64,000 nt of DNA from Haplodiscus bocki (lineage: Eukaryota): assembly GCA_965655095.1 (NCBI GenBank), contig OZ296649.1:49600001-49664000 (forward strand), in the 5' to 3' direction. This document shows, piece after piece, positions 6,900 through 64,000 of the stretch. Position 1 is the first letter of the stretch, and each line of letters starts with the position of its first letter. The notes beneath the pieces were generated by a model. That model did not search any database. It was not told the DNA's origin and saw nothing but the letters and a program-made list of their open reading frames with translations. The position numbers were made by a program, and so were the translations under genes.

Positions 6900-7990
6900 T
6901 ACTTAACAAACCTAGTCAATTATTAGAACAATAAACTCAGCAAAAACGCAAAAGCCGATTCGGAAAAATGTTGTGCTCGTGAATTTCTGAGGGAGGCACT
7001 CCTTCACACAATCTGGATGTAGAATAAATATTCATAGCAGGAATATATTCGTCGAAAGTCTGATCGCCGCAACAAATATTGTCTAAAAGTGTTTCATCTG
7101 CTTGTCGCACTCAGTTTCATACTTGCAGAGTTGCTCGTAAGACCAGGACGTGTTCCTAGTTACTGAACAATGTCAATTTTACGTACGAAGTGTCGGTGAC
7201 CCATACCAAAAAGTGATTGCAAATGTTATCACGGAAAGAACAAAAGCCCTGTAGGTGATTGGTAATTCTACAGGCATATAATCAATACGTTCAAGTCTGT
7301 TGATTTGCCTCACCAATTTTTTAGCCGTTACGCACATGTCTTTAATATTTGCGTTGAATCTCTATTTTTCATCAATGATAATTTCCAGTAGTATAATTTC
7401 AACGAATTCACTCAAAATGTTTCACGAAGAAATTAGAAACTTTTACGTTTGAAGTAAATCAGGAGCTCTTCTTAAGTATTAGAATTCAGCATCATGCCAT
7501 TTTGATGATCACACCATTCCAAGATATCATCAATCAAAAGTTGGTTATACCGTTTATACCAGCTTTTCCAGCAAGTAGCGATCGTGAGAGCAGACAAGAA
7601 AAACGAGATTTTATACAGTGTCTGGAGAGTGGCAGCATCATGATGTCGACGAAAGAATGCAAACGCGAAAACCCCCAGACATAGGGTTTTCTACGACGCC
7701 ATTTCAACAGAACGGAAACGCCAAGGCTGATGAACCTTTGTTCAAGTTCACTGAGAGCATGGTCGACTATCTGTGTCGGACGGATTATGTGGGTAAGAAG
7801 TTGGAGCAGGCCAATACAGTGTATCACCTAGTTTGTCTTTCAACTTATTACAAAATTTGAAAACTGTACGGTTGCACCACTCACCTTCAGATATCACTGG
7901 ATTGCAAAAACTATAATTCACTATAACTGGCGTGTATTCATGATGGCAGTCGTAAAATGGAGCATAAGTGACTGGGTCAATTTATCAACA
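6900..7990 (-). pseudogene. LINE (CR1/L2-like) ORF2 reverse transcriptase, 3' fragment (present in every unit; unit 1 coordinates)
   Basis: Minus-strand pieces VDHALSELEQRFISLGVSVLLKW, LTIA...IDDILEWCDHQNGMMLNSNT*EELLIYFKRK, and LLEIIIDEK*RFNANIKDMCVTAKKLVRQINRL...TYRAFVLSVITFAITFWYG follow the canonical order of non-LTR RT domains 3-7 and thumb. Confidence 0.8.
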
Positions 7991-52400: not shown

Positions 52401-52660
52401 CTCCGTTTATCATAATGACTGCAGCTACATCACTGCGTTGACGCAAGGTCTTTGCTGAATTGGCAATCACAATAGTCAAGTCGTCATCATTGAGGATTTT
52501 TTCCCCACATCCTTAAGCTTGTATTTACTCAATGAGCCCTACTTTTGTTTCCCTGGCAACAAACTTGACAGTAATGGGAAGCCCTTTCCCATTTTATCTG
52601 TATTACTGGGCACCCGGTGAGTAGTATAGGGGATGGGGCTGAGCAATCGAGGAAGTTGGT
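49500..52660 (-). mobile_element. Decayed near full-length LINE (CR1/L2-like): ORF1 remnant plus ORF2 RT remnant; boundaries approximate
   Basis: ORF1-type motifs PITVKFVARETK...KLK...NDDDLT...LRQRSDVAAVIMINGEVLV at ~52390-52590. RT motifs NIFSDNHFCFRAHDDAIDSL, FPKGTILAPLPFFLHVNELP, LAVDTNI and VEHLGILVNCILKFEAH at 49927-50686. Confidence 0.75.
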
Positions 52661-52664
52661 TGGG

Positions 52665-52871
52665 AAGCCAAGATATTAAATAGGCAATAGGGTTCGAATT
52701 GCAAACGAAGACTTACCCTTCAAGAAAGGTTACAGGCAAAATTTCACTGACGACGTTTGTCTAGTTACCAATATTGTAACATTCAATCCTCCTACGGATT
52801 CATTGGCTGACAAAAACGGTGAGAACATTCAAGGAAAGTTTTATGAACCAGAACTGATAAAAACTCGCTGA
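52665..52871 (+). pseudogene. Polinton retroviral-like integrase, C-terminal fragment
   Basis: KPRY*IGNRVRIANEDLPFKKGYRQNFTDDV...NPPTDSLADKNGENIQGKFYEPELIK fits the Polinton INT C-terminal pattern GDxVRI...FxKGY...PxTYxLxD..GE.IxGxFYExEL. Confidence 0.88.
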
Positions 52872-52873
52872 AA

Positions 52874-53730
52874 ATGGACGAATTTGATATCTATTTAGAG
52901 TCAACGGGTTCAATGCAAACATACCAAAACAACAAAATGGCATGCTTTCGCAACGCACTTTCTGAACCCCTACATTTGGATGGAGACTGGCGAGTTGCAT
53001 TGGCAGAAATTACTTTTTCTTCTAGTATCAAAAATGTAACAACCGAGGAATACTTCATTTACACACCTCGCACGGCGACAGAACTTTTGTCTAATCTCAA
53101 CCGCTCAGCTTCTGCAGGCGTGATAGTTCAACGGCCGGATTTTTCCAGCAACGCAACATTCCCAGACTGAGAAATTGAAAGCACAGAAATTACCTTGGAA
53201 ATAATAAAAAAGGGTACAATTTTCACCAAACAAATCCTGAAAGCAAGTTGTGAGCAGAAAACGTTTGAGCTGGAGTTTGCATAAGGCTATAGCATCAGTG
53301 TTCGAGACCGCAGCTTATTGGACGTTTTAGGATTTAGTGGTTTAACTGACACCCATCGAGGTGGATACTTCATCGGGAAGCACAACAGGATACGGAATCA
53401 AACACAGCCAATGAAAGGAGACTTTCCAGCCGATATACTTTGAGGAACAGAATTCTTTTTTTTAATTGCAATATCATCGAACAACAGCACGTTGCTGGCG
53501 CCAAAGCACCAATATTACGCGTCATTGATACAGGAAGAAAACTAACAGACGGTGAGCTCAATATCACATCTTCTACATTTCATAAAATTTTCACAGAGTT
53601 GCAAGTCAAAAAACTATTGTTGAATTCAGTCAGAGACGTTCACGTTGAGCTGGTTACACCTACTGGAAATTGCGTTCGTTTTGTTGGCACACGAAGAGTA
53701 ATTCTCACTCTAAAGTTTAGAAAGGTTTGA
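52874..53730 (+). pseudogene. Polinton minor capsid protein (penton), disrupted
   Basis: N-terminus MDEFDIYLESTGSMQTYQNNKMACFRNALSEPLHLDGDWRVALAEI; C-terminus CNIIEQQHVAGAKAPILRVI...VILTLKFRK. Internal stops near 53168 and 53282 and a frameshift near 53435. Confidence 0.87.
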
Positions 53731-53734
53731 AACG

Positions 53735-54101
53735 ATGGATAGTTATTACTCACGTCAAGCTATCATGCCTCATTTCACCGGCCATGCTCGTCAACGAGGT
53801 AGCAGGTTTGGACATTTAGCACTTGGTGTCGGACGCGTTGCAATGCCATTTGCGAAAAACGTCCTTCTACCTGCTGTTCAATGGATTGGTAAAGAGTTAT
53901 TTGGCCAAAGTTTACCAAAAATAATGGAACTTGCTACAAAGTAGAAATCTTTAAAACGAGCAGCAAAAGCTGCACTGAAGAAGATGGTCCAGAAGCAAAG
54001 AGGAGGGGGTGGGCGTAGAAAAAACAGAAAGTTTCGACAAAAACGCAAGCTACAGAGAAATCGGTCAGATTTCTTCTCTAAAATTAAAAAATGTTACCTA
54101 A
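53735..54101 (+). pseudogene. Small basic Polinton virion core protein (adenovirus pVII/pX-like)
   Basis: MDSYYSRQ...RQRGSRFG...; after one TAG it continues KQRGGGGRRKNRKFRQKRK...RSDFF. Has a YYxxQ motif, QxG motifs and an Arg/Lys-rich tail, and lies between penton and capsid. Confidence 0.7.
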
Positions 54102-55400
54102 CGTTCTACCGCTTGAAGAGTCGCATGTATCATTGGATCCATTCGAAAGACCCCTCGTTCTGATCACATTTGATACTTCATTTGAGCAGAAGGTTGGACC
54201 CCTTTATTCTCCAAACTGACTAACTTTAGAGTTGGACATAGTAGGAGGTAGAACCAACTTCATCGATTTACAGAACATCTACCTCGAGAAGAAGTGCAAA
54301 ATTCTTCATTGGACAGCAATAGGCTTCGTTTCACCACTGGAGATTTAGCGCAAGTGATTTACCCTTTTACGTCAACAACACATTACACTCGTTATTTTCT
54401 GATTGCAGTGTCTCTGCAAATGGCATCAAAAAATCTTCAACCAATGGAAACTATGCGTAGAAAGCTTTCATCGAGACAGAGTTTTCTCATAATAGAGAAG
54501 AAGCTAAGGACACATGGTTGAAATGTCAAGGATATTCCCACGAAAAATCACCCGACACTTCTACCGATTTTGTGTTTACAGAGTGTCAAAATGAGACAAA
54601 ACGGTTTGCAAAAGTTGCATATATTGGCAAAGTTGCAGCTGATAATTTTCTTGTGAGAAACATCTCATCAGCAGCGTAACCATCCGGGCATCTTTTCTCA
54701 GACATCGTCCCGAATTCTTTTTGATTTATGATGATTAATCTAAAGATTACAAGATTGAAATATCACAAGCAAGTTTGTATATACGTAAAACGACAGTTTT
54801 CGAAAATGTTTATTCTGCAATTGAAAGTACACTAACAAACACACCTGCAACCTACAGATAGACAGAAATCATACCAAAAACTTCTCTAGTTTCGACAGAT
54901 TCGGAAAGCTGGAGCCATGAGGACATTTTTAACCGCAAACCTATCCGACGTTTTGCTGTGGCGATGGCAACAAACAAAGCCTTCCTTGGCTCGGAAGCCC
55001 ACAACCCTTTTTACTACCAGAAGTTCAACCTAGAGAACATTACGGTGTACCGGAATGGTTATCCCATTGCTACAACAAAGCTACAGAGAAACAACGATAA
55101 AAACTTTACCTAAACCCTCTCGAGGCTCTTGCATTCGGATTTCACGGCCATGGTGTTCCATTTTCCGACTTTCCAAACCACTACGTTTTAGTATTCGACA
55201 TTACAAGTACCCAACAGGCTTCACACGACTATTTATATCCTGAGTTAACAAGCGGCTCCAAGTCAATTGATTTGCGCTTCTTAGCTGAAGCAACAGACTG
55301 CCTAGAGCTGTTCTTTCTGGGAGAAAAGACTTCAACAATTTACATCGATTCCATCCGTAAAGTATCGGAAAACATTTTTCTCGATACGAAGATTGATAGC
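54091..55400 (+). pseudogene. Polinton major capsid protein (double jelly-roll, hexon-like), disrupted
   Basis: MLPNVLPLEESHVSLDPFERP...GPLYSPN*LTLELDIVGGRTNFIDLQNIYLE; NNTLHSLFS; AFIET; ASLYIRK; AFLGSEAHNPFYYQKFNL; YVLVFDITST; LFFLGEKTSTIYID. Several stops and frameshifts. Confidence 0.88.
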
Positions 55401-55405
55401 AAGAA

Positions 55406-55831
55406 ATGTTCGATGAACTTGGGTTATGGAGAATTGTTAACAAATGTGCGCTCCTGAAAATTCAATTTGAGGGAGTTTATTCAGCAGATAAATTCTCTGT
55501 TACGCTCAGAGAAACTACTTTCGTTATAGTCAATTCAGACAATTCAGAAAAACATGGAACCCCTTGGCTGCTCCATTGCATTAGACAAAGCGAAAACTGC
55601 TTTGGCGACCCACTTGGTCTATCTTTTTAATCTTAACAGAACATTTGCGCTCGTTTGGATTCGAATGATTTAGGAATAAAGGAACTCAATTATCAGCTTC
55701 AGAAACCTACATCTAAGTTTTGCGGACTCTACTGCATATACATTGATCATTATGTGTTTCGTCCTTACTATGCTTTAAAACGTATGATATCAGAAGACGA
55801 GCTGCCCCAGTTTGTGAAGCATATTTTATGA
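55406..55831 (+). pseudogene. Adenain-like (C5) cysteine maturation protease, disrupted
   Basis: FEGVYSAD...IVNSDNSEKHGTPW (GxHW with His changed to Pro)...FGDPLG, two in-frame TAA, then QLQKPTSKFCGLYC (Q...CGxYC). Confidence 0.88.
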
Positions 55832-56144
55832 TTCTGTTGGCGCTACTTCTGAGGGCATTAGAAAAAATATGAAACAATAAAAAAGTTTGAAAACTGATAT
55901 CAAATCACGTAGTATCAACAGAATGTCATGTTTCAATCAACATATCAACACTGATAATTGTAACCTAGAACTTGTAAATTTAGATTTTCAAAAACTTCCT
56001 TTCCTATCCATAAAAACAAGGTTCAAAGCAGAGGACAGAGTGGAAAAGTCTTGAATTAGTTAGAAATTCTTAAAGGTTCAGGAAAAGACGCAGGATCAAT
56101 TCAAAAGTTTCAGAACCGTCGCTTAGTTTCCACTTTTTTGTTTG

Positions 56145-56557
56145 AACTGCAAAAACCACTCATGCTTTCAAATCGACTTTTTAAAGCTGTTTCAGAAGTT
56201 GCGGCGCAATTGTTGACAGCCTACCTGTAGTGAAAATCGGGAGATAGTGAAACACTTCAATTGAAGCATTTGAGAAAAGCACAACTTAAATTGAATTAGT
56301 TGAGACTTTGGTTGATTTTGCGGGTGCTTTATTCCGGAACCACTTTTCGGAAAACTGCAAAAACCACTTATGCTTTCAAATCGACTTTTTAAAGCTGTTT
56401 CAAAAGTTGCGGCGCAATTGTTGACAGCCTACCTGTAGTGAAAATCGGGAGATAGTGAAACACTTCAATTGATGCATTTGAGAAAAGCACAACTTAAATT
56501 GAATTAGTTGAGACTTTGGTTGATTTTGCGGATGCTTTACTCCGGAACCACTTTTGG
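56145..56557 (+). repeat. Two-copy direct tandem duplication, ~208-bp period
   Basis: AACTGCAAAAACCACT...TCCGGAACCACTTTT starts at 56145 and at 56353, with only a few substitutions. Confidence 0.92.
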
Positions 56558-56850
56558 GGTCGTTTCAGCGCTCCAGCAGTAGTTTCTCTTCTCTTTCCAG
56601 GTTGCGGTCCCATGTTAATGTTTTCCACGTTATTGATTAGCTCCTGAAACTCGGCAACTGTTAGTGTAACACGCTGATTAATGTAAAAAAGACCATCTGT
56701 TCTGTTTTTAAAGAGTTTCAGGAAAAGATAGGTTGTAGTACTTTCGTAGTTTTTTGTAGTGACTCTCAATATTCTTCTTTCAGTTTTCGAGATGTCGATG
56801 AAACTATCTCCGAACTCCTTTTCGATGGAAGAGGTGAAAGGTCGACTCAT
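56494..56850 (-). CDS. PC4-like ssDNA-binding protein of the Polinton (118 aa from the ATG at 56850)
   Basis: FIDISKTERRILRVTTKNY...YLFLKLFK...QRVTLTVAEFQELINNV has a PC4-type beta-strand/helix pattern and a basic tail. The frame is open. Confidence 0.55.
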   Translation of the reverse strand: MSRPFTSSIEKEFGDSFIDISKTERRILRVTTKNYESTTTYLFLKLFKNRTDGLFYINQRVTLTVAEFQELINNVENINMGPQPGKRRETTAGALKRPQKWFRSKASAKSTKVSTNSI

Positions 56851-57442
56851 TTTGGTTGAGCTAAAATTTGAAGTTGAAAAGTAGTGGAAAGGAGAGTCAG
56901 ACAAGGAAGTTAACTGAACGGAGAAACTAATTTAGAAAAACGTGAAAATTGGGTTCATGTGTTTACTTTCTGACCTAGCTCATAAACATCAATCAAAAAA
57001 TTAAACAAATCTAGGTTAATTACTATAATTACTAGCAAAGCGCACATCGTTGAAACCACAGCAACCAAATATGGAGCGAAGACATCTGATAAGAGCGTTT
57101 ATTTACAATCACATCGCAAAAAAATGATAGAGGCCGAAACATCAAACTTTTATTTTCGTACACATCGTCAACTTAAAAGAGATGTCTGGACCATGTTTGT
57201 AACCCAGCGTGATGAAAAATTAGATTTCTAGACTTTGTTTGAATTTACGTACGAAAACGTAGGTTTGTTGACATGCAAAAAAGTTTTTGTGGAACATATG
57301 ATAATCCAACAAAATAAAACAAATATTTTCATCAACAGTGAACTACTATCAAGTTCTTGTTTCTTTAACTATTCTATCAGACTTTATTTTTCGACAGAAC
57401 CAACTACTTGCTTTTTAAAGTCCTTGAAACAATTGTTCTGGA

Positions 57443-57901
57443 ATGAAAATTGATATTCAAACTTTTACTGACTTTAGCGATTATAATAGATACATATTTT
57501 ACGAAACTTGGTTCAATGATAAAATTGTTATTGTTATGGGGAAAAAAGATGGACGAAGATTGGCAAGTTATGACTTCAGTATCGTTACCAAGACCATTAA
57601 TGGAAGTCCTAAAACATCGGGTCCAAGAATTTCTACCAATTTTGGGAACGCTCTAACGTCAACCAACAATAGTCCAAATCGAAGAAATTCTACCAATCTC
57701 GAAAACGTCGAAACGTCAACCAATAGTTATCGAGCAAAAACAGTAGTCGATCGCTTGGAGTTACCGACGCAGGTCAAAAAGGTATTATTCAAGTGCGATT
57801 ATGAAAAAATACCATTGTCGGAGAATCAAATGGGGTCGTTCAGTGACCTAGAGACTCTTGAATGTTTCTGGGACAAAGTTAAGAAGAAGAATTTTAAATG
57901 A
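57443..57901 (+). CDS. Polinton orphan ORF, 152 aa
   Basis: Open ATG-initiated frame; its stop overlaps the next ATG (ATGA). No recognisable motif. Confidence 0.4.
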   Translation: MKIDIQTFTDFSDYNRYIFYETWFNDKIVIVMGKKDGRRLASYDFSIVTKTINGSPKTSGPRISTNFGNALTSTNNSPNRRNSTNLENVETSTNSYRAKTVVDRLELPTQVKKVLFKCDYEKIPLSENQMGSFSDLETLECFWDKVKKKNFK

Positions 57902-58116
57902 CGAAAGAAGTAACACTTCCATCACCTTTCGAGACACTGGTCAATGAAAACAGTACCAAAGAAAGTGAGTTGCTGGTTTATCAAGAGCCGAAAACAGAGG
58001 GAAACATTTCAAATGCTGATGTTTTTACGTGCCAACGACCGAAGACTCCTGAAACAATGGGTTCAAACGAAAAAGAGTGTCGTCCAGCTCCGAAGAAACC
58101 CAAAAAATCACAGTAG
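57898..58116 (+). CDS. Polinton orphan ORF, 72 aa, basic NLS-like tail (PAPKKPKK)
   Basis: ATGA overlap with the upstream ORF; low-complexity sequence. Confidence 0.3.
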   Translation: MTKEVTLPSPFETLVNENSTKESELLVYQEPKTEGNISNADVFTCQRPKTPETMGSNEKECRPAPKKPKKSQ

Positions 58117-58578
58117 TTTTAATGGAGTTTGGCGAACGACTCGAGTTCTCAGAGCTGCGAGAATGAGAAGCTGATTTTGGTATGAGCAATCAAAACTTGT
58201 AGTTTGTTTTTTTTTTTGGTATGTCGGAACTTTCGACTTAAACTTCCCCTTTTTTATACTTGAGCCGCAGCTTTTTGTATCACTGTTCAAGACAAGGGTC
58301 ATCTTCCGGAGGTCTTTTTCTCTTGAAGTAGAAAAGTCAATCTATGCAATTTAAAAGACGGAAATGACAGTGAACTCTAAATAAAAGACACCAGCGGGAA
58401 AGATTGTGGCAACACAGCACAAGCAAGCAGCCAGCTCAAGAGGAATTTCAAAATTTCAACCAAACAGAGAGAAGTGGCTAGGAAGATCTGAAAGAAGGAT
58501 TTCAAAAAGATTGAATATTTCAACCAATGAGAAAACAAAAGCATTTGTAACAGAAATTCACTTTCAATTCAATTCGTT

Positions 58579-61500
58579 CTGAAAACGCAACATCGTGATA
58601 TTTGTTCCAAAAGTTTTGCAAACCGACAAAACCTAAACCGACATCGCAAGAAAATTCATAGCTTGAACAAGAATAAATATGAAATATTCTGCAGTTCTTG
58701 TAATTTCAACTGTAAAACACTATTAGAAATGCAAGTGCACTTATCATCCCAACCCAATGGGAAGCCGTCACGGTTCTGCGTTTACTGTAAGAAAACTTTT
58801 CTGACGGAATCAGATTTCAGAAAACATCAACGGGAACAGCACTCACTTTCCATGCGTAATCAGACAGTTAAAAAAGACGACCGAAATATCAGTTCAGCTT
58901 TCAACAACACATTCAAATTTTTCAGAATTGGGGCGGAAGATAAACACGACCTGCTAGAATTTTTGCTTGAGAAGGAAACTCTGATTCGAGAAACTTTGAT
59001 GGAAAAATCACAACGAAAGCCAGTGAAAGTACAACTCTCAGTGAAACTTATTTTAAAAAAACCAATTGAAGAAGACACCGACAAGATAGAAGTTCATTTG
59101 AACACGGCTATGATTCCTGTTTTTGCTCAAGTTCTGGCAAAAGAAACACTTTTCGACAAAGTGTTTTCAACGTTATTATCCTTCACAGCGCATGGGAGTG
59201 GGTGGCTAGTGGACAAAATCAAAACTGTGGAATTGAAAATGGCTAATTCTGCACCGGTGAGAGGATCGTCTTACTTAGCTTTACCATCGGAATTGCAGGG
59301 AATACGGAGCCTGTTGAACATTCGCAACCATCTTGACAACAAATGCTTCCTCTACTGTTTTACAGCGGCTTACCACTTATTCTACAGTCCACCGTTACAA
59401 ACTGATACCTGACGAATAGCTACAAGTTCACCACTCTACAGCAGTAACAACCCTTCAGCTCAACAAGCAATAGGGGACTTTGACATGCGCATGGGATTCA
59501 AAAACATTGCAAACTTTGAGATTCTCGATAACGTACAAGTAAATGTTTTCAGATAGGAGAACAAACAGCTGTTCCCGTTGCGTTCATCAAAAAATTCGAC
59601 TTTGAGTTGACGCTGGACCTTCTTCTTTTACAAGACGACCAAACTTATCAATATGTTTTCATTACAAACATATTGAGCCTAGTCAATCACATTAAACAGA
59701 GAGGACCACGAAGTGATGACAAGTTCTGTCGTAACTGTTTTCACATTTGCTCACAGGAAAGTTGTATCAATCATCATAACAATCTTATGAAATTCGAGGC
59801 AGCAGCAATCGAACTGCCCGCATCAAATGCTGAAAAAGTTGATTTCAAAAACTTTAGTGCCCGAGCATACGCTCCAGTTGTTACATTTTTCGATTTGGAA
59901 TCCCTCATGATTCCCATACAAAGTTGTGATGATAATCCTTCAAGTAGCTGGGCTCGCAATTTGGAAAAGCACAGACCTTGCGGTTTTTGTCAAGTGATAA
60001 ATGAAAGCGGCTCATTGCAGCCGGTACATCTTTCTATAGATCGATCATCAACGTGCATGCAGAAATTGGCAATACATCTTAAAGCAATTGCAAGGGAAAT
60101 TTACCAGAGAAAGCAAACTCACCGCATCCACAAAGGTAGACCGGACTTTTCAAGTGATCAAATTACCGACTGTTGGATTTGTGAGAAGCCATTTCTCGAT
60201 GAGCTGAAGGTTCTATATCGCTGCGTTTTCACCGGAAAATTTCTAGGTTACGCACACGATCAATGCAACTTTAAACGATGAAGCATTAATTACATCCCGG
60301 TCATAGCACGTAACTCTTCCAACTACGACATACATAATTTATGTAAGGAGGTACATGAATTCGCGTCAGAATGCAAAATTGAACTTGTACCTGTTACCAA
60401 CGAAAAATATATCGGGGTAAAAATTGCTGTGAGTCAATTCTTATACAGATAAGAGAGGTTTCGTTAAAAACGTTTACGAGTATTTGAGGTTTATCGACTC
60501 TTACAGATTTTTACCCTCATCGTTGGAGAAGCTGGTCAGTTACCTGCTTACAGAATGTTTTCAAAAACTAGACAACTACTTTCAATTTTATCAGCCGATA
60601 GAAAGAGAGGTTTTTCGTCAGAAAAGATTTTATCCCTACAGTTTTTTCGATTCTTTCGCAAAGTTCCAGGAAAATCAACTTCCCCCTATAAACTATTGGA
60701 CCAACAGTTTTAGTGGCAGTGAAATTTGCTTGAATGTAGTGGAAGAATTCAGAAAGCTGTGTTATGACACATATGGTTTTGATAGCGCACATTATTTCAC
60801 TTGTTCTCACCTGTCAGGTATTGCTTTCAACAAAATTTGTCGAGCCGACCTACACTTTTTGACAGACCGTGAACACGTTACACGTTGAAATGGCCGAAAA
60901 TAAGATTGGAGGCGGTGTAGCTTCAATCTTCTCGAAACGATTTTTTAGAGCGAACAACAAGTACATGGACAACTTCAACTTTGATAATGAATCTGAGTTT
61001 TGGACTACTTCTCGACGCTAACAATTGATATGGTGGGGTTATGGAAAAACTACTTCTCCCTGTAAAAGACTTCCAGAAAGTTGAGATCCCCTCCAAGAAA
61101 TTCTCAATACGGATATCGATTCAGATGTTGGATATATTCTTGAGGTTGATCTGGAGTACCCCGACTACCTTCATGATCAACATAAAGATTTTCCTCTCGC
61201 CCGACAAAAGAAAACATTGAAGAAATGTTCCTGAGCGATTTTCAATTGAACCTACTTGAAAAAATGGGAGTAAAAAATGAATCACCAAAAACTGATGCAG
61301 GTACTGAGCAACAAAAGCAACTACACTGTGCATTATCTCGATTTGAAGCTGTATGTGGAAGTGGGCTTACTAGTAAAGAAAGTTTACAGAGTTCTGCAGT
61401 TTCGTCAATCACTCTCGTTACGCCCCACTATTTTGCTCAACACAGAAAATAGACAGCGGTTGGTTAACGAGTTCCAGGAAGGGTCCTTCAAGCTGACGAA

Positions 61501-62599
61501 CAACAACTACTATGGAAAGACTGTCGAGAGTAAGACAAACACAGTCCATGTGCAATTAAAACGATCAATCGACGAAGTGCAACGCGTCATTGATAAGTCT
61601 TTGATGCAATCATTCAAAATTTTTGACAAAAATTTAGCTGGCGTAACACTCAAACAAACGAAAAATTACTGGAAGAAACCAACCATTGTCGGAGCATGTG
61701 TGGTCGAACTTGCGAAATTTAGCATGTTCTCATTCCACTACAAATTTATGAACAATGCATTTGATTGTGAACTAATTTACTCAGACACGGACCCAATTTT
61801 CTACGAAATAAATCATGTTGACCCTTACAAAGAATTAGCGGAAAATGTAAACCGGCGAAAAAACTTCGATTTCTTAAACTACCCACAAAATTACCCTTTG
61901 TATCATAATGGAAACAAAATGGTTACACTTCTATTCAAAGACGAGATGGCGGGTAAAATTCTTGAAGAATTTGTCGGACTCAAGCCAAAAATGTACTCCA
62001 TAAAGTATGGAGGTAATCAAAGACTCTCCGGCAGGGGCGTATCTCGATTCGCACAGACAAATCTTAAACACGATATTTACAAAACAGTTTTATCAACCAC
62101 CAACAGCATTAGAACCAATAACATACGCATCGGACCTTCCCTTCATCAATTGGAAACTATTTCGAGCAGCAAAATATATTTGTCCGCTTTCGGTGATAAA
62201 CGTTACCTTTTAAAGAACGGCATCGAAACTTTACCATTTGGCCATTATTTGGTGGGAGACATAGTCGCTTTCCGTGAAATCTTAGCAGATCATGACTGGG
62301 GTGAGGAAATTGTTGCAAGTCCAGACTGGGAAACTTTAGTGAGAGAGTATGGCCCGAGTCAGTTCGATAACAGATCTAACAGAAGCCTTCCACGCCCAAA
62401 TACTCCACCTCGAGCTCGAAACGGTCATAACGACACCCTTAGTGAAATCTTGAATGATAGTTGGACACCACCAGATCATGGTTTCCATCAAGAAGGGCGT
62501 AATGAATTTGATTTAGATGACGATTGGTCGGTTCACTACCGACTTCTATGCAACCTATGGACAAAAAAATTCTACGTCTTTCAGAAATCCCAACATTGA
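58579..62599 (+). pseudogene. Protein-primed family B DNA polymerase polyprotein (3x C2H2, TP/vOTU-like region, exonuclease with EndoVII insert, polymerase), disrupted
   Basis: Motifs in order: GSGW...GSSYLALP...NIRNHLDNKCFLYC; ExoI FFDLES; CWICEKPF...TGKFLGYAHDQCN; NSSNYD; RFIDSYRFLPSSLEKL; FYPYSFFD; LDANN*YG; GYILEVDLEYP; KLTNNNYYGKT; YSDTDP; FKDEM; GLKPKMYS; DKRY. Multiple stops and frameshifts. Confidence 0.93.
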
Positions 62600-63199
62600 T
62601 GATGGAGCAGTTGAGGACGTTACAGGTGAGCTTGAAGAATTACCGCAACGAGAAAGACGTCATGATGTAATCCTGAGTTCTGGTGTAGGGTTTTAGTATT
62701 TTCATAATGAAGTCTCCTGAAACTTTAAGTATTTAACAAGTATTTTATGTTTTGATATGCTTCGTTTATTTCCTTGCCTCGCAATATTAATTAAAGCCAA
62801 AACAATTTTTCAAAAGTTCAACCAGACGGGAGTTAGTTGGGTAGACGCTTTTTCAAACTAGAGCTGCAATTCAAACAGCTTCTTATACCGTGATTTTAGG
62901 TTACGATTACCAAACAAAAAAACCGCGATACTAGATTTTTAGTGTCATAGGAAAGAAGAGAAAGAAAGACCACACACGCTTCAGCAGACACGCTACAAAC
63001 AGTTCGCAAGGGACGTTGCTTGATCAAGAGATTTGTTGATAACTTACGGAGTAAACTTTCTCAACTTTTGTTTACACAAAACACTTCAAGCACTCGAGAA
63101 ACTAGAAACAGAGGTAAAAGTGTTGGATTCACAACAGCAGTAGCTACAATTGGTCGGACTGTAGCGAATAACAACGAGAAGAGGACAGGAATTGAAAGT

Positions 63200-64000
63200 T
63201 GAAACATTTTTCATGCAAAAAAACAGGGTGAAAAATCAAGGTAACCCACTTGTGTCACTCCAAAAAGTTGCCCCGTAAAACTCCTTCAATGTTGAAATTG
63301 GTGGTACCAATCCCCACCCTGGGGGGATCTTGGTTGAGGATATATTTCGAAAAAAGTACAAAAAAAAGAGGGAGAAAAAACTTTTTTGCAAAAATTCAGT
63401 GAAAAAATTGCGCAAAACAACCTAAAACACTCAAGATTACTACCCTCAGAAAATCCACTTCATTGTGCTTCAAATGGTACCAAAAACCACCTTGAGGGGA
63501 TCTTGGTTGAGGAGAAATTCAAAAAAAACATTTGAAAAAATTTCAGAAACGGTCTTTATTTCGAAAAATTTGATGCAAAATCCATAAAAAGACAGGAAAA
63601 AAGCCCGTACGTGCCTAAAAACACCTCCACACACGTTTTCCTTCATCCAACAAGTCACTAGAGCCTGTAAAAGATGAGTTCGCGGTAAGGCTCGAACCCG
63701 TGAATTGCGACCTCCCAACCCCCTAAAAGGTCCTTTCTGATACAATTTAACCCCGGAACGTCGTTGTAGGGCTGACTTTCGAACGAACCCGGAAAAAAAT
63801 TTTTTCAAAACCCCTTAGTATTTATCCCAGGGGGCGCCGAACCAACGGCTGTCTATGAGAGGTGCTCCCGTCCGCCTTCAAACTCAATTACTCACCGTTC
63901 GCTTTAGCCTTAACCACTACACTACCGGGCCATTGATTTGCGTAAGTTTAATTGCTATATACACATATACTGCGCCCCACTTTTTATATACACATATACT
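63200..64000. repeat. Probable right terminal inverted repeat region of the Polinton (inner boundary approximate)
   Basis: Non-coding and homopolymer-rich. The motif GGTACCAA...CCACC(C/T)TG...GGGGATCTTGGTTGAGGA occurs at ~63304 and ~63476. Ends with TATATACACATATACT twice (reverse complement starts AG, the Polinton terminal dinucleotide). No partner TIR was seen in the window. Confidence 0.6.
63807..63931 (-). ncRNA. Candidate Pol III tRNA-like small RNA in the terminal region
   Basis: Minus strand GGCCCGGTAGTGTAGTGGTTAAGGC (A-box as in tRNA-Val) ... GGTTCGGCGCC (B-box-like) ... CTGGGA, then TTTT. Confidence 0.35.

Follow-up and report, generated by a model that had tools for sequence, protein, structure and literature searches.

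The window analysed here, a 64,000-nt part of a 1.5-Gb genome, ends within a decayed, left-truncated Polinton that is 87–90% identical to other copies of its family from position 52638 onwards. About 19 nt of its left terminal inverted repeat (TIR) remain at 52620; the right TIR, 87 nt long, lies at L001:4026-4112 and ends outside the window at 64112, with a terminus of the AGTAGT type. The protein-primed DNA polymerase B (pPolB) expected of a Polinton is represented by a frame with 24 homologues, three of which carry PF03175, and the family has 87-nt TIRs that start with AGT and, at paired ends, a 6-bp target duplication. Among 16 paired ends this duplication is perfect (6/6) in nine and 5/6 in four, with two misses and one untestable pair (13/15). 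The window copy is bracketed by a direct duplication of ∼65 nt instead (52555-52619 and L001:4113-4177). Pfam searches of the window fragments gave no match for integrase, packaging ATPase, capsid or protease genes, and the decayed frames of the Polinton were left unnamed by Pfam, PHROGs and PDB; the frames of L120-L122 contain, judged by eye, what we take to be integrase-like, Walker A and protease-like motifs. Elsewhere in the window, ∼5900-48000 is occupied by 20 tandem copies of a ∼2.09-kb repeat, mostly 90–99% alike, in which we found no Rfam match at the gathering score and no tRNA.

Inside the right end of the Polinton, 180–450 nt inward of its terminus, lies a set of Pol III-like signals on the minus strand, here called the unit and numbered from +1 at 63931 (Table 1). 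All motifs named in the first-pass annotation are present in the sequence of that strand where it had placed them. Taken singly, the boxes occur in the window at the chance rate, with four A boxes observed and 4.17 expected, and one B box observed and 1.91 expected. An A box followed by a B box 25–300 nt away was found in none of 63 control stretches (121,760 nt) downstream of other pPolB genes, these stretches coming from 63 of 86 pPolB loci. Motif counts refer to 48 aligned copies, with L022, a near-duplicate of L021, omitted. The CAATG at the start of the unit is kept in 38 of these, the B core of box (b) is exact in 24 and within one mismatch in 39, and some T4 is found within the 26-nt stretch at the 3′ end of the unit in 46. 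The A and B boxes are separated by 197–227 nt (median 216, n = 49), and a second T-run follows the unit at 63799-63793 on the minus strand. No TATA-like element was seen at any of 122 host tRNA gene calls. The first T-run behind these calls is T4 in 66 of the 122, from few isotypes; to judge from sequence, T4 is a terminator used by host Pol III.

Table 1. Features of the Polinton copy and of the unit near its right end.
Feature	Position	Strand	Evidence
Decayed, left-truncated Polinton copy	52620..64000, continuing to 64112 past the window	+	Identity to family copies
pPolB, C-terminal frame	61274..62599	+	Homologues, Pfam PF03175
∼172-bp tandem repeats, inward of the unit	63302..63580		Copy number differs among Polinton copies
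TATA-like element, −30	63955..63961	-	Sequence; kept in 33/48 copies
tRNA-Thr-like head (acceptor 5′ strand and D arm), predicted +1 at 63931 after CAAT	63907..63931	-	Host tRNA match
A box TAGTGTAGTGG, +8..+18	63914..63924	-	Exact in 33/48 copies; at most one mismatch in 42/48
Conserved body, +33..+125: three short possible hairpins, variable loop +68..+80	63807..63899	-	Lineage differences
Box (a) GGTTCGGCGCC, resembling a B box but lacking its invariant A; complement of +56..+61	63833..63843	-	2/48 copies with the A
T4 after box (a), predicted terminator	63807..63810	-	35/48 copies
Variable spacer	63721..63792	-	42/78 columns differ, young vs old
Box (b) block: box (b) sequence GGTTCGAGCC at 63698-63689 in a canonical B box at 63698-63688 (+234..+244), tRNA-like acceptor 3′ strand, short trailer, T4 at 63672-63669	63669..63699	-	

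The first-pass annotation had seen two genes in this region, one with box (a) as its B box and another at box (b). The consensus GTTCRA..C is found at box (a) in only 2 of 48 copies, the invariant A being missing in the other 46, and no A-box match lies 25–60 nt before box (b) in the window. By its motifs the region reads as one unit, not two genes, with box (b) as the only true B box.

Both ends of this arrangement resemble host tRNA genes. The 26 nt from 63931 agree in register with a host tRNA-Thr(UGU) gene (L115) at 20 positions, which makes this the best site in the window (the runner-up scores 16). A score of 20 was reached in 1 of 100 shuffled windows, where tRNA-Thr was taken as the best of three isotype arrays. 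In L256, a copy from a distant lineage, the match to host gene L257 is 24/25, a likeness that is partly due to selection, both having been found with one 19-nt pattern. Aligned without gaps to the 3′-terminal 22 nt of host tRNA-Thr, the tail of copy L226 agrees at 16 of them, and the tails of young copies fit tRNA-Arg(UCU) better (19/23); the isotype of the tail is ambiguous. The A box had been described as tRNA-Val-like, but Thr fits best among the host Thr, Arg and Lys tRNAs compared, a set that contains no Val. Searches for a complete tRNA gene, with an anticodon arm in its cloverleaf, were negative: ARAGORN calls none in the window, and Rfam gives neither a tRNA match to the unit up to E=10 nor any other known family. 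The simplest origin for the unit would be a single tRNA gene interrupted at the anticodon arm. Host tRNA genes for Arg, Lys and Thr (L092-L119, L257) form long tandem arrays with many decayed members.

The unit is present at one end of the Polinton only. It had been placed in the TIR, but in all 16 paired left ends the match to the right end stops after 87 nt, and none of these left ends contains the unit, whether by alignment or by a profile search. Successive searches of the genome found it at no fewer than 55 places (38 + 11 + 2 + 4), a lower bound. Of these, 53 adjoin a Polinton terminus, pPolB or the 172-bp repeats, and the other two are identical truncated fragments that retain upstream DNA. 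Searches with exact 20-mers from the head and from box (b) gave 19 and 10 matches respectively, all at Polinton ends. A dispersed SINE, put forward earlier as the main alternative, is rejected within the limits of these searches, since 53 of the 55 places are in a Polinton context. The two truncated fragments, at L123:2030-2260 and 7400-7630, lie 5.4 kb apart without a TIR, box (b) or a nearby pPolB DNA match.

Among pPolB loci with at least 74% protein identity, 22 of 23 have the unit, and the remaining locus has lost its whole right end. It is absent from all 22 ends of a large family with a like TIR start and from 40 loci downstream of pPolB in other families, 14 of which were read up to the terminus. 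A profile search of 86 loci with pPolB relatives at 28–65% identity, most of which stop short of the terminus, gave no match, and exact 20–22-mers of the unit are absent from the viral and metagenome contigs. The unit is thus clade-specific, being absent from sister Polinton families, and is not a general Polinton feature. In a pPolB tree the copies that bear it form two clades, one of which is joined by the nearest family without it at 87/88 support, and it is possible that the unit was gained once, with or without one subsequent loss. L037 groups with the unit-less family in this tree because a sister-family element without the unit (L037:5569-7782) is inserted behind its unit-bearing end, and its row was discounted.

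Polinton ends in this genome are often rearranged. A much larger family (L057-L078), whose pPolB is very distant (23–29% protein identity to P0001), has the first 77 nt of its TIR in common with the unit-bearing family at ∼95% identity, which shows that ends are exchanged between lineages. Right ends rebuilt with several hundred nt of captured DNA are seen in L005 and L010, in L007, L009, L012-L015 and L017, and in L019; in most of them ∼200 nt have been copied from the left end and the unit is intact inside. In L002:3934-4982, L004:5000-6063 and L006:3592-4982 a second copy of the terminal ∼206 nt, with the A box and D arm, lies outside the unit and is joined to a captured piece that starts with a decayed T-arm-like sequence.

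Because inserted copies decay on their own, conservation was assessed between lineages, and it rests on one informative contrast, that of young with old copies. Compared with six old copies, L002 is 56–66% identical in pPolB DNA and 71–79% identical in the unit, which is far better conserved than the Polinton's own polymerase gene. Between young and old lineages, 11 of 126 columns differ in the unit as against 42 of 78 in the spacer (Fisher p = 1.4e-12). The differences are unevenly spread, with 5/32 in +1..+32, 1/35 in +33..+67, 5/13 in +68..+80 and 0/46 in +81..+125. The two most conserved parts, +33..+67 and +81..+125, contain no promoter box, which implies that something besides the A and B boxes has been kept. 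Conservation drops directly after the T-runs, and is 0.73 in the middle of the TIR compared with 0.98–0.99 in the body of the unit. A second island is the box (b) block, named in advance by the first-pass annotation, in which 2 of 27 columns differ, compared with 65 of 162 in its flanks (p = 8e-4). Old lineages O1 and O2 resemble each other across the spacer as well (corrected 0.94), which is why young against old is the only informative contrast. Taken together, the sequence comparisons indicate that the unit is a real, conserved, clade-specific and tRNA-derived entity.

Four short hairpins can be drawn in the unit, with 86% of cells pairing; the helix between box (a) and +56..+61 is paired in 89.9% of cells. 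No helix is longer than about 10 bp. RNAalifold found no common fold for the unit copies, mean folding z-scores are weak, at −0.86, −0.36 and −0.46 in the three groups, and one lineage change disrupts a D-stem pair in 20 of 20 young copies. The covariation analysis that had been proposed earlier gave no signal across the aligned copies, the observed score being reached by 304 of 500 shuffles. The pairing between the 5′ and 3′ ends noted in the first-pass annotation is not a feature of the young copies, in which the 5′ end pairs locally (mean probability 0.62, median 0.92) and only rarely with the last 30 nt (0.04). We attribute it to the window copy being among the more decayed of the young copies; private changes at +27..+30 have abolished its local hairpin, and its z-score is +0.62.

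We propose, tentatively, that the unit is a Pol III gene of tRNA origin whose promoter is split and whose predicted hairpin RNA of ∼125 nt serves the Polinton; we regard this as plausible, though a little short of probable. It takes in the observed position of the unit, its single-endedness, the tRNA likeness of both pieces, their conservation across lineages and their absence from sister families. A host tRNA gene, probably for Thr, would have been captured by a Polinton and then interrupted at the anticodon arm. TFIIIC would bind both boxes (A at +8, B at +234), and TFIIIB would occupy the TATA element (−30). Pol III would start near 63931 and stop at the T4 (+122) or the following T-run (+133), leaving the B box outside the transcript, as in yeast SNR6. 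In the least certain step, the RNA may help replication at the terminus 180 nt away, as BocaSR does for its virus. We prefer such a role to that of a dsRNA decoy because of the shortness of the helices. Counting against the proposal are the missing covariation and common fold, the weak folding scores, the D-stem change in young copies, the exchange of ends between lineages, the ambiguous isotype of the tail, and the fact that sister families have multiplied without the unit. In its fullest form, which we hold with somewhat more reserve, the proposal is that an animal-type Polinton clade split a captured tRNA-Thr gene and so made it into a small-RNA gene of its own: the 125-nt RNA would begin with the former head, and the former T arm would serve as an enhancer-like B box downstream.

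Several of these observations could be accommodated in other ways. The unit could act as DNA, either as a landing pad for TFIIIC and TFIIIB or as a single-ended packaging or origin-accessory region beside the TIR, any RNA being incidental. Adenoviruses have a packaging domain at a comparable distance from the terminus, and the single-ended position of the unit 180–450 nt from the end, the almost continuous conservation from the end of the TIR to +125 and the lack of both covariation and unusual folding would all suit such an element. We nevertheless think it rather unlikely, since conservation stops at the T-runs, tRNA position 1 is precisely where the head starts, and the one variable patch within the unit coincides with a predicted loop. 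A functionless fossil, in which a tRNA or SINE piece was captured once at an end and spread by end exchange, seems less likely still. Right ends have often been remade from captured host DNA, TIR starts are common to unrelated families, O1 and O2 are alike in both unit and spacer, and close sister families have no unit, all as this would predict; a single exchange, however, predicts even divergence, whereas what is seen is two conserved islands amid diverged but alignable stretches, and the only one of the 23 closest pPolB loci without a unit is the one that lost its right end.

Behind the B box, the acceptor-like 3′ strand, the trailer and the T-run are also conserved (2/27), and the tail keeps the register of a tRNA 3′ end. 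This raises the question of read-through to that T-run, which would give a tRNA-like RNA of ∼260 nt with both boxes inside and an insert in place of the anticodon arm. Most copies have up to three runs of T4–T7 between the A box and box (b), and pairing of the 5′ with the 3′ end is rare in the long form (mean probability 0.11–0.15), making this distinctly improbable. Least probable is the original suggestion, in which a tandem pair of VA-RNA-like genes in the TIR would act against antiviral or RNAi responses. In its favour are the presence of an A box and T4 terminators, a size near 125 nt and the context of a DNA virus. Against it, the region lies outside the TIR, 46 of 48 copies have no invariant A in box (a), no A box precedes box (b), terminal and apical stems are both missing, as is any long duplex, the unit contains no ACCC, and covariation was not seen. 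A tandem VA-like anatomy is largely refuted. What stands of the earlier reading of these sequences as Pol III signals is that they are tRNA-derived, bound to one family and conserved across lineages; the TIR site, the two genes, the internal B box and the VA-like fold do not.

In the literature available to us, subscription journals, Repbase reports and supplements aside, we found no report of a Pol III small RNA in a Polinton, Maverick or adintovirus. If the unit is transcribed, Polintons would join the DNA viruses that have Pol III small RNAs, and a mobile element in a large eukaryotic genome would be found to have the promoter layout documented in yeast U6. The proposal, if true, would describe a non-tRNA Pol III RNA in Polintons that arose independently of VA RNA and BocaSR, and would offer a snapshot of the birth of a viral Pol III RNA from tRNA genes. 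VA RNAs have been hypothesised to derive from tRNA genes (PMC7589676). In this relative of the adenoviruses both tRNA pieces are recognisable against host tRNA-Thr, in copies of several ages, and the sister families without the unit serve as controls.

Comparison with known systems shows partial likeness to each. tRNA sequence inside Polinton-type elements is known from the Polinton-like viruses, with 558 tRNAs from a scan of 8300 genomes (PMC12220804) and a figure legend in PMC8502044 that names predicted tRNA genes. Those tRNAs are whole and found by ARAGORN or Rfam, whereas the unit, its anticodon arm missing, escapes both. A tRNA-derived SINE has a similar tRNA-like head with an A box, but the unit is not dispersed, its copies include upstream DNA, and neither a tail of its own nor a target duplication was seen. 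With the adenovirus VA RNAs the unit has in common tRNA-related Pol III signals, a T4 terminator and the setting of a DNA virus with a pPolB-type polymerase. According to PMC7589676, VA RNAs are ∼160 nt long, have their A and B boxes inside the gene and form a terminal stem, an apical stem and a GGGU-ACCC stem. Of these features the unit has the intragenic A box. It has no intragenic B box, box (a) being canonical in 2 of 48 copies and box (b) lying beyond the T-runs; short local hairpins, with end pairing of 0.04 in young copies, take the place of a terminal stem and long apical stem; and there is no ACCC for a GGGU-ACCC stem in the window unit or in L002.

Human bocavirus 1, a small DNA virus, makes from its 3′ noncoding region a Pol III RNA of 140 nt, BocaSR, which is needed for replication (PMC11194592). 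Its gene, like the unit, sits in noncoding DNA at one end; BocaSR is a proven RNA with both boxes intragenic, whereas the RNA of the unit is predicted and its only canonical B box lies past the terminator. The layout of the unit is that of Saccharomyces cerevisiae SNR6 (U6), budding yeast being the only organism for which we found a downstream B box documented. According to PMC9136082, this gene has a TATA at −30 and 202 bp from box A to an extragenic box B downstream of the terminator. The same order is found in the sequence of the unit, with a TATA-like element at −30, an internal A box and a B box past the terminator, ∼200 nt away, and the distance of 202 bp falls within the 197–227 nt seen among copies. 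The difference is one of origin and setting: SNR6 is a cellular snRNA gene, whereas the unit is tRNA-derived, has its A box at the tRNA position (+8) and resides in a mobile element.
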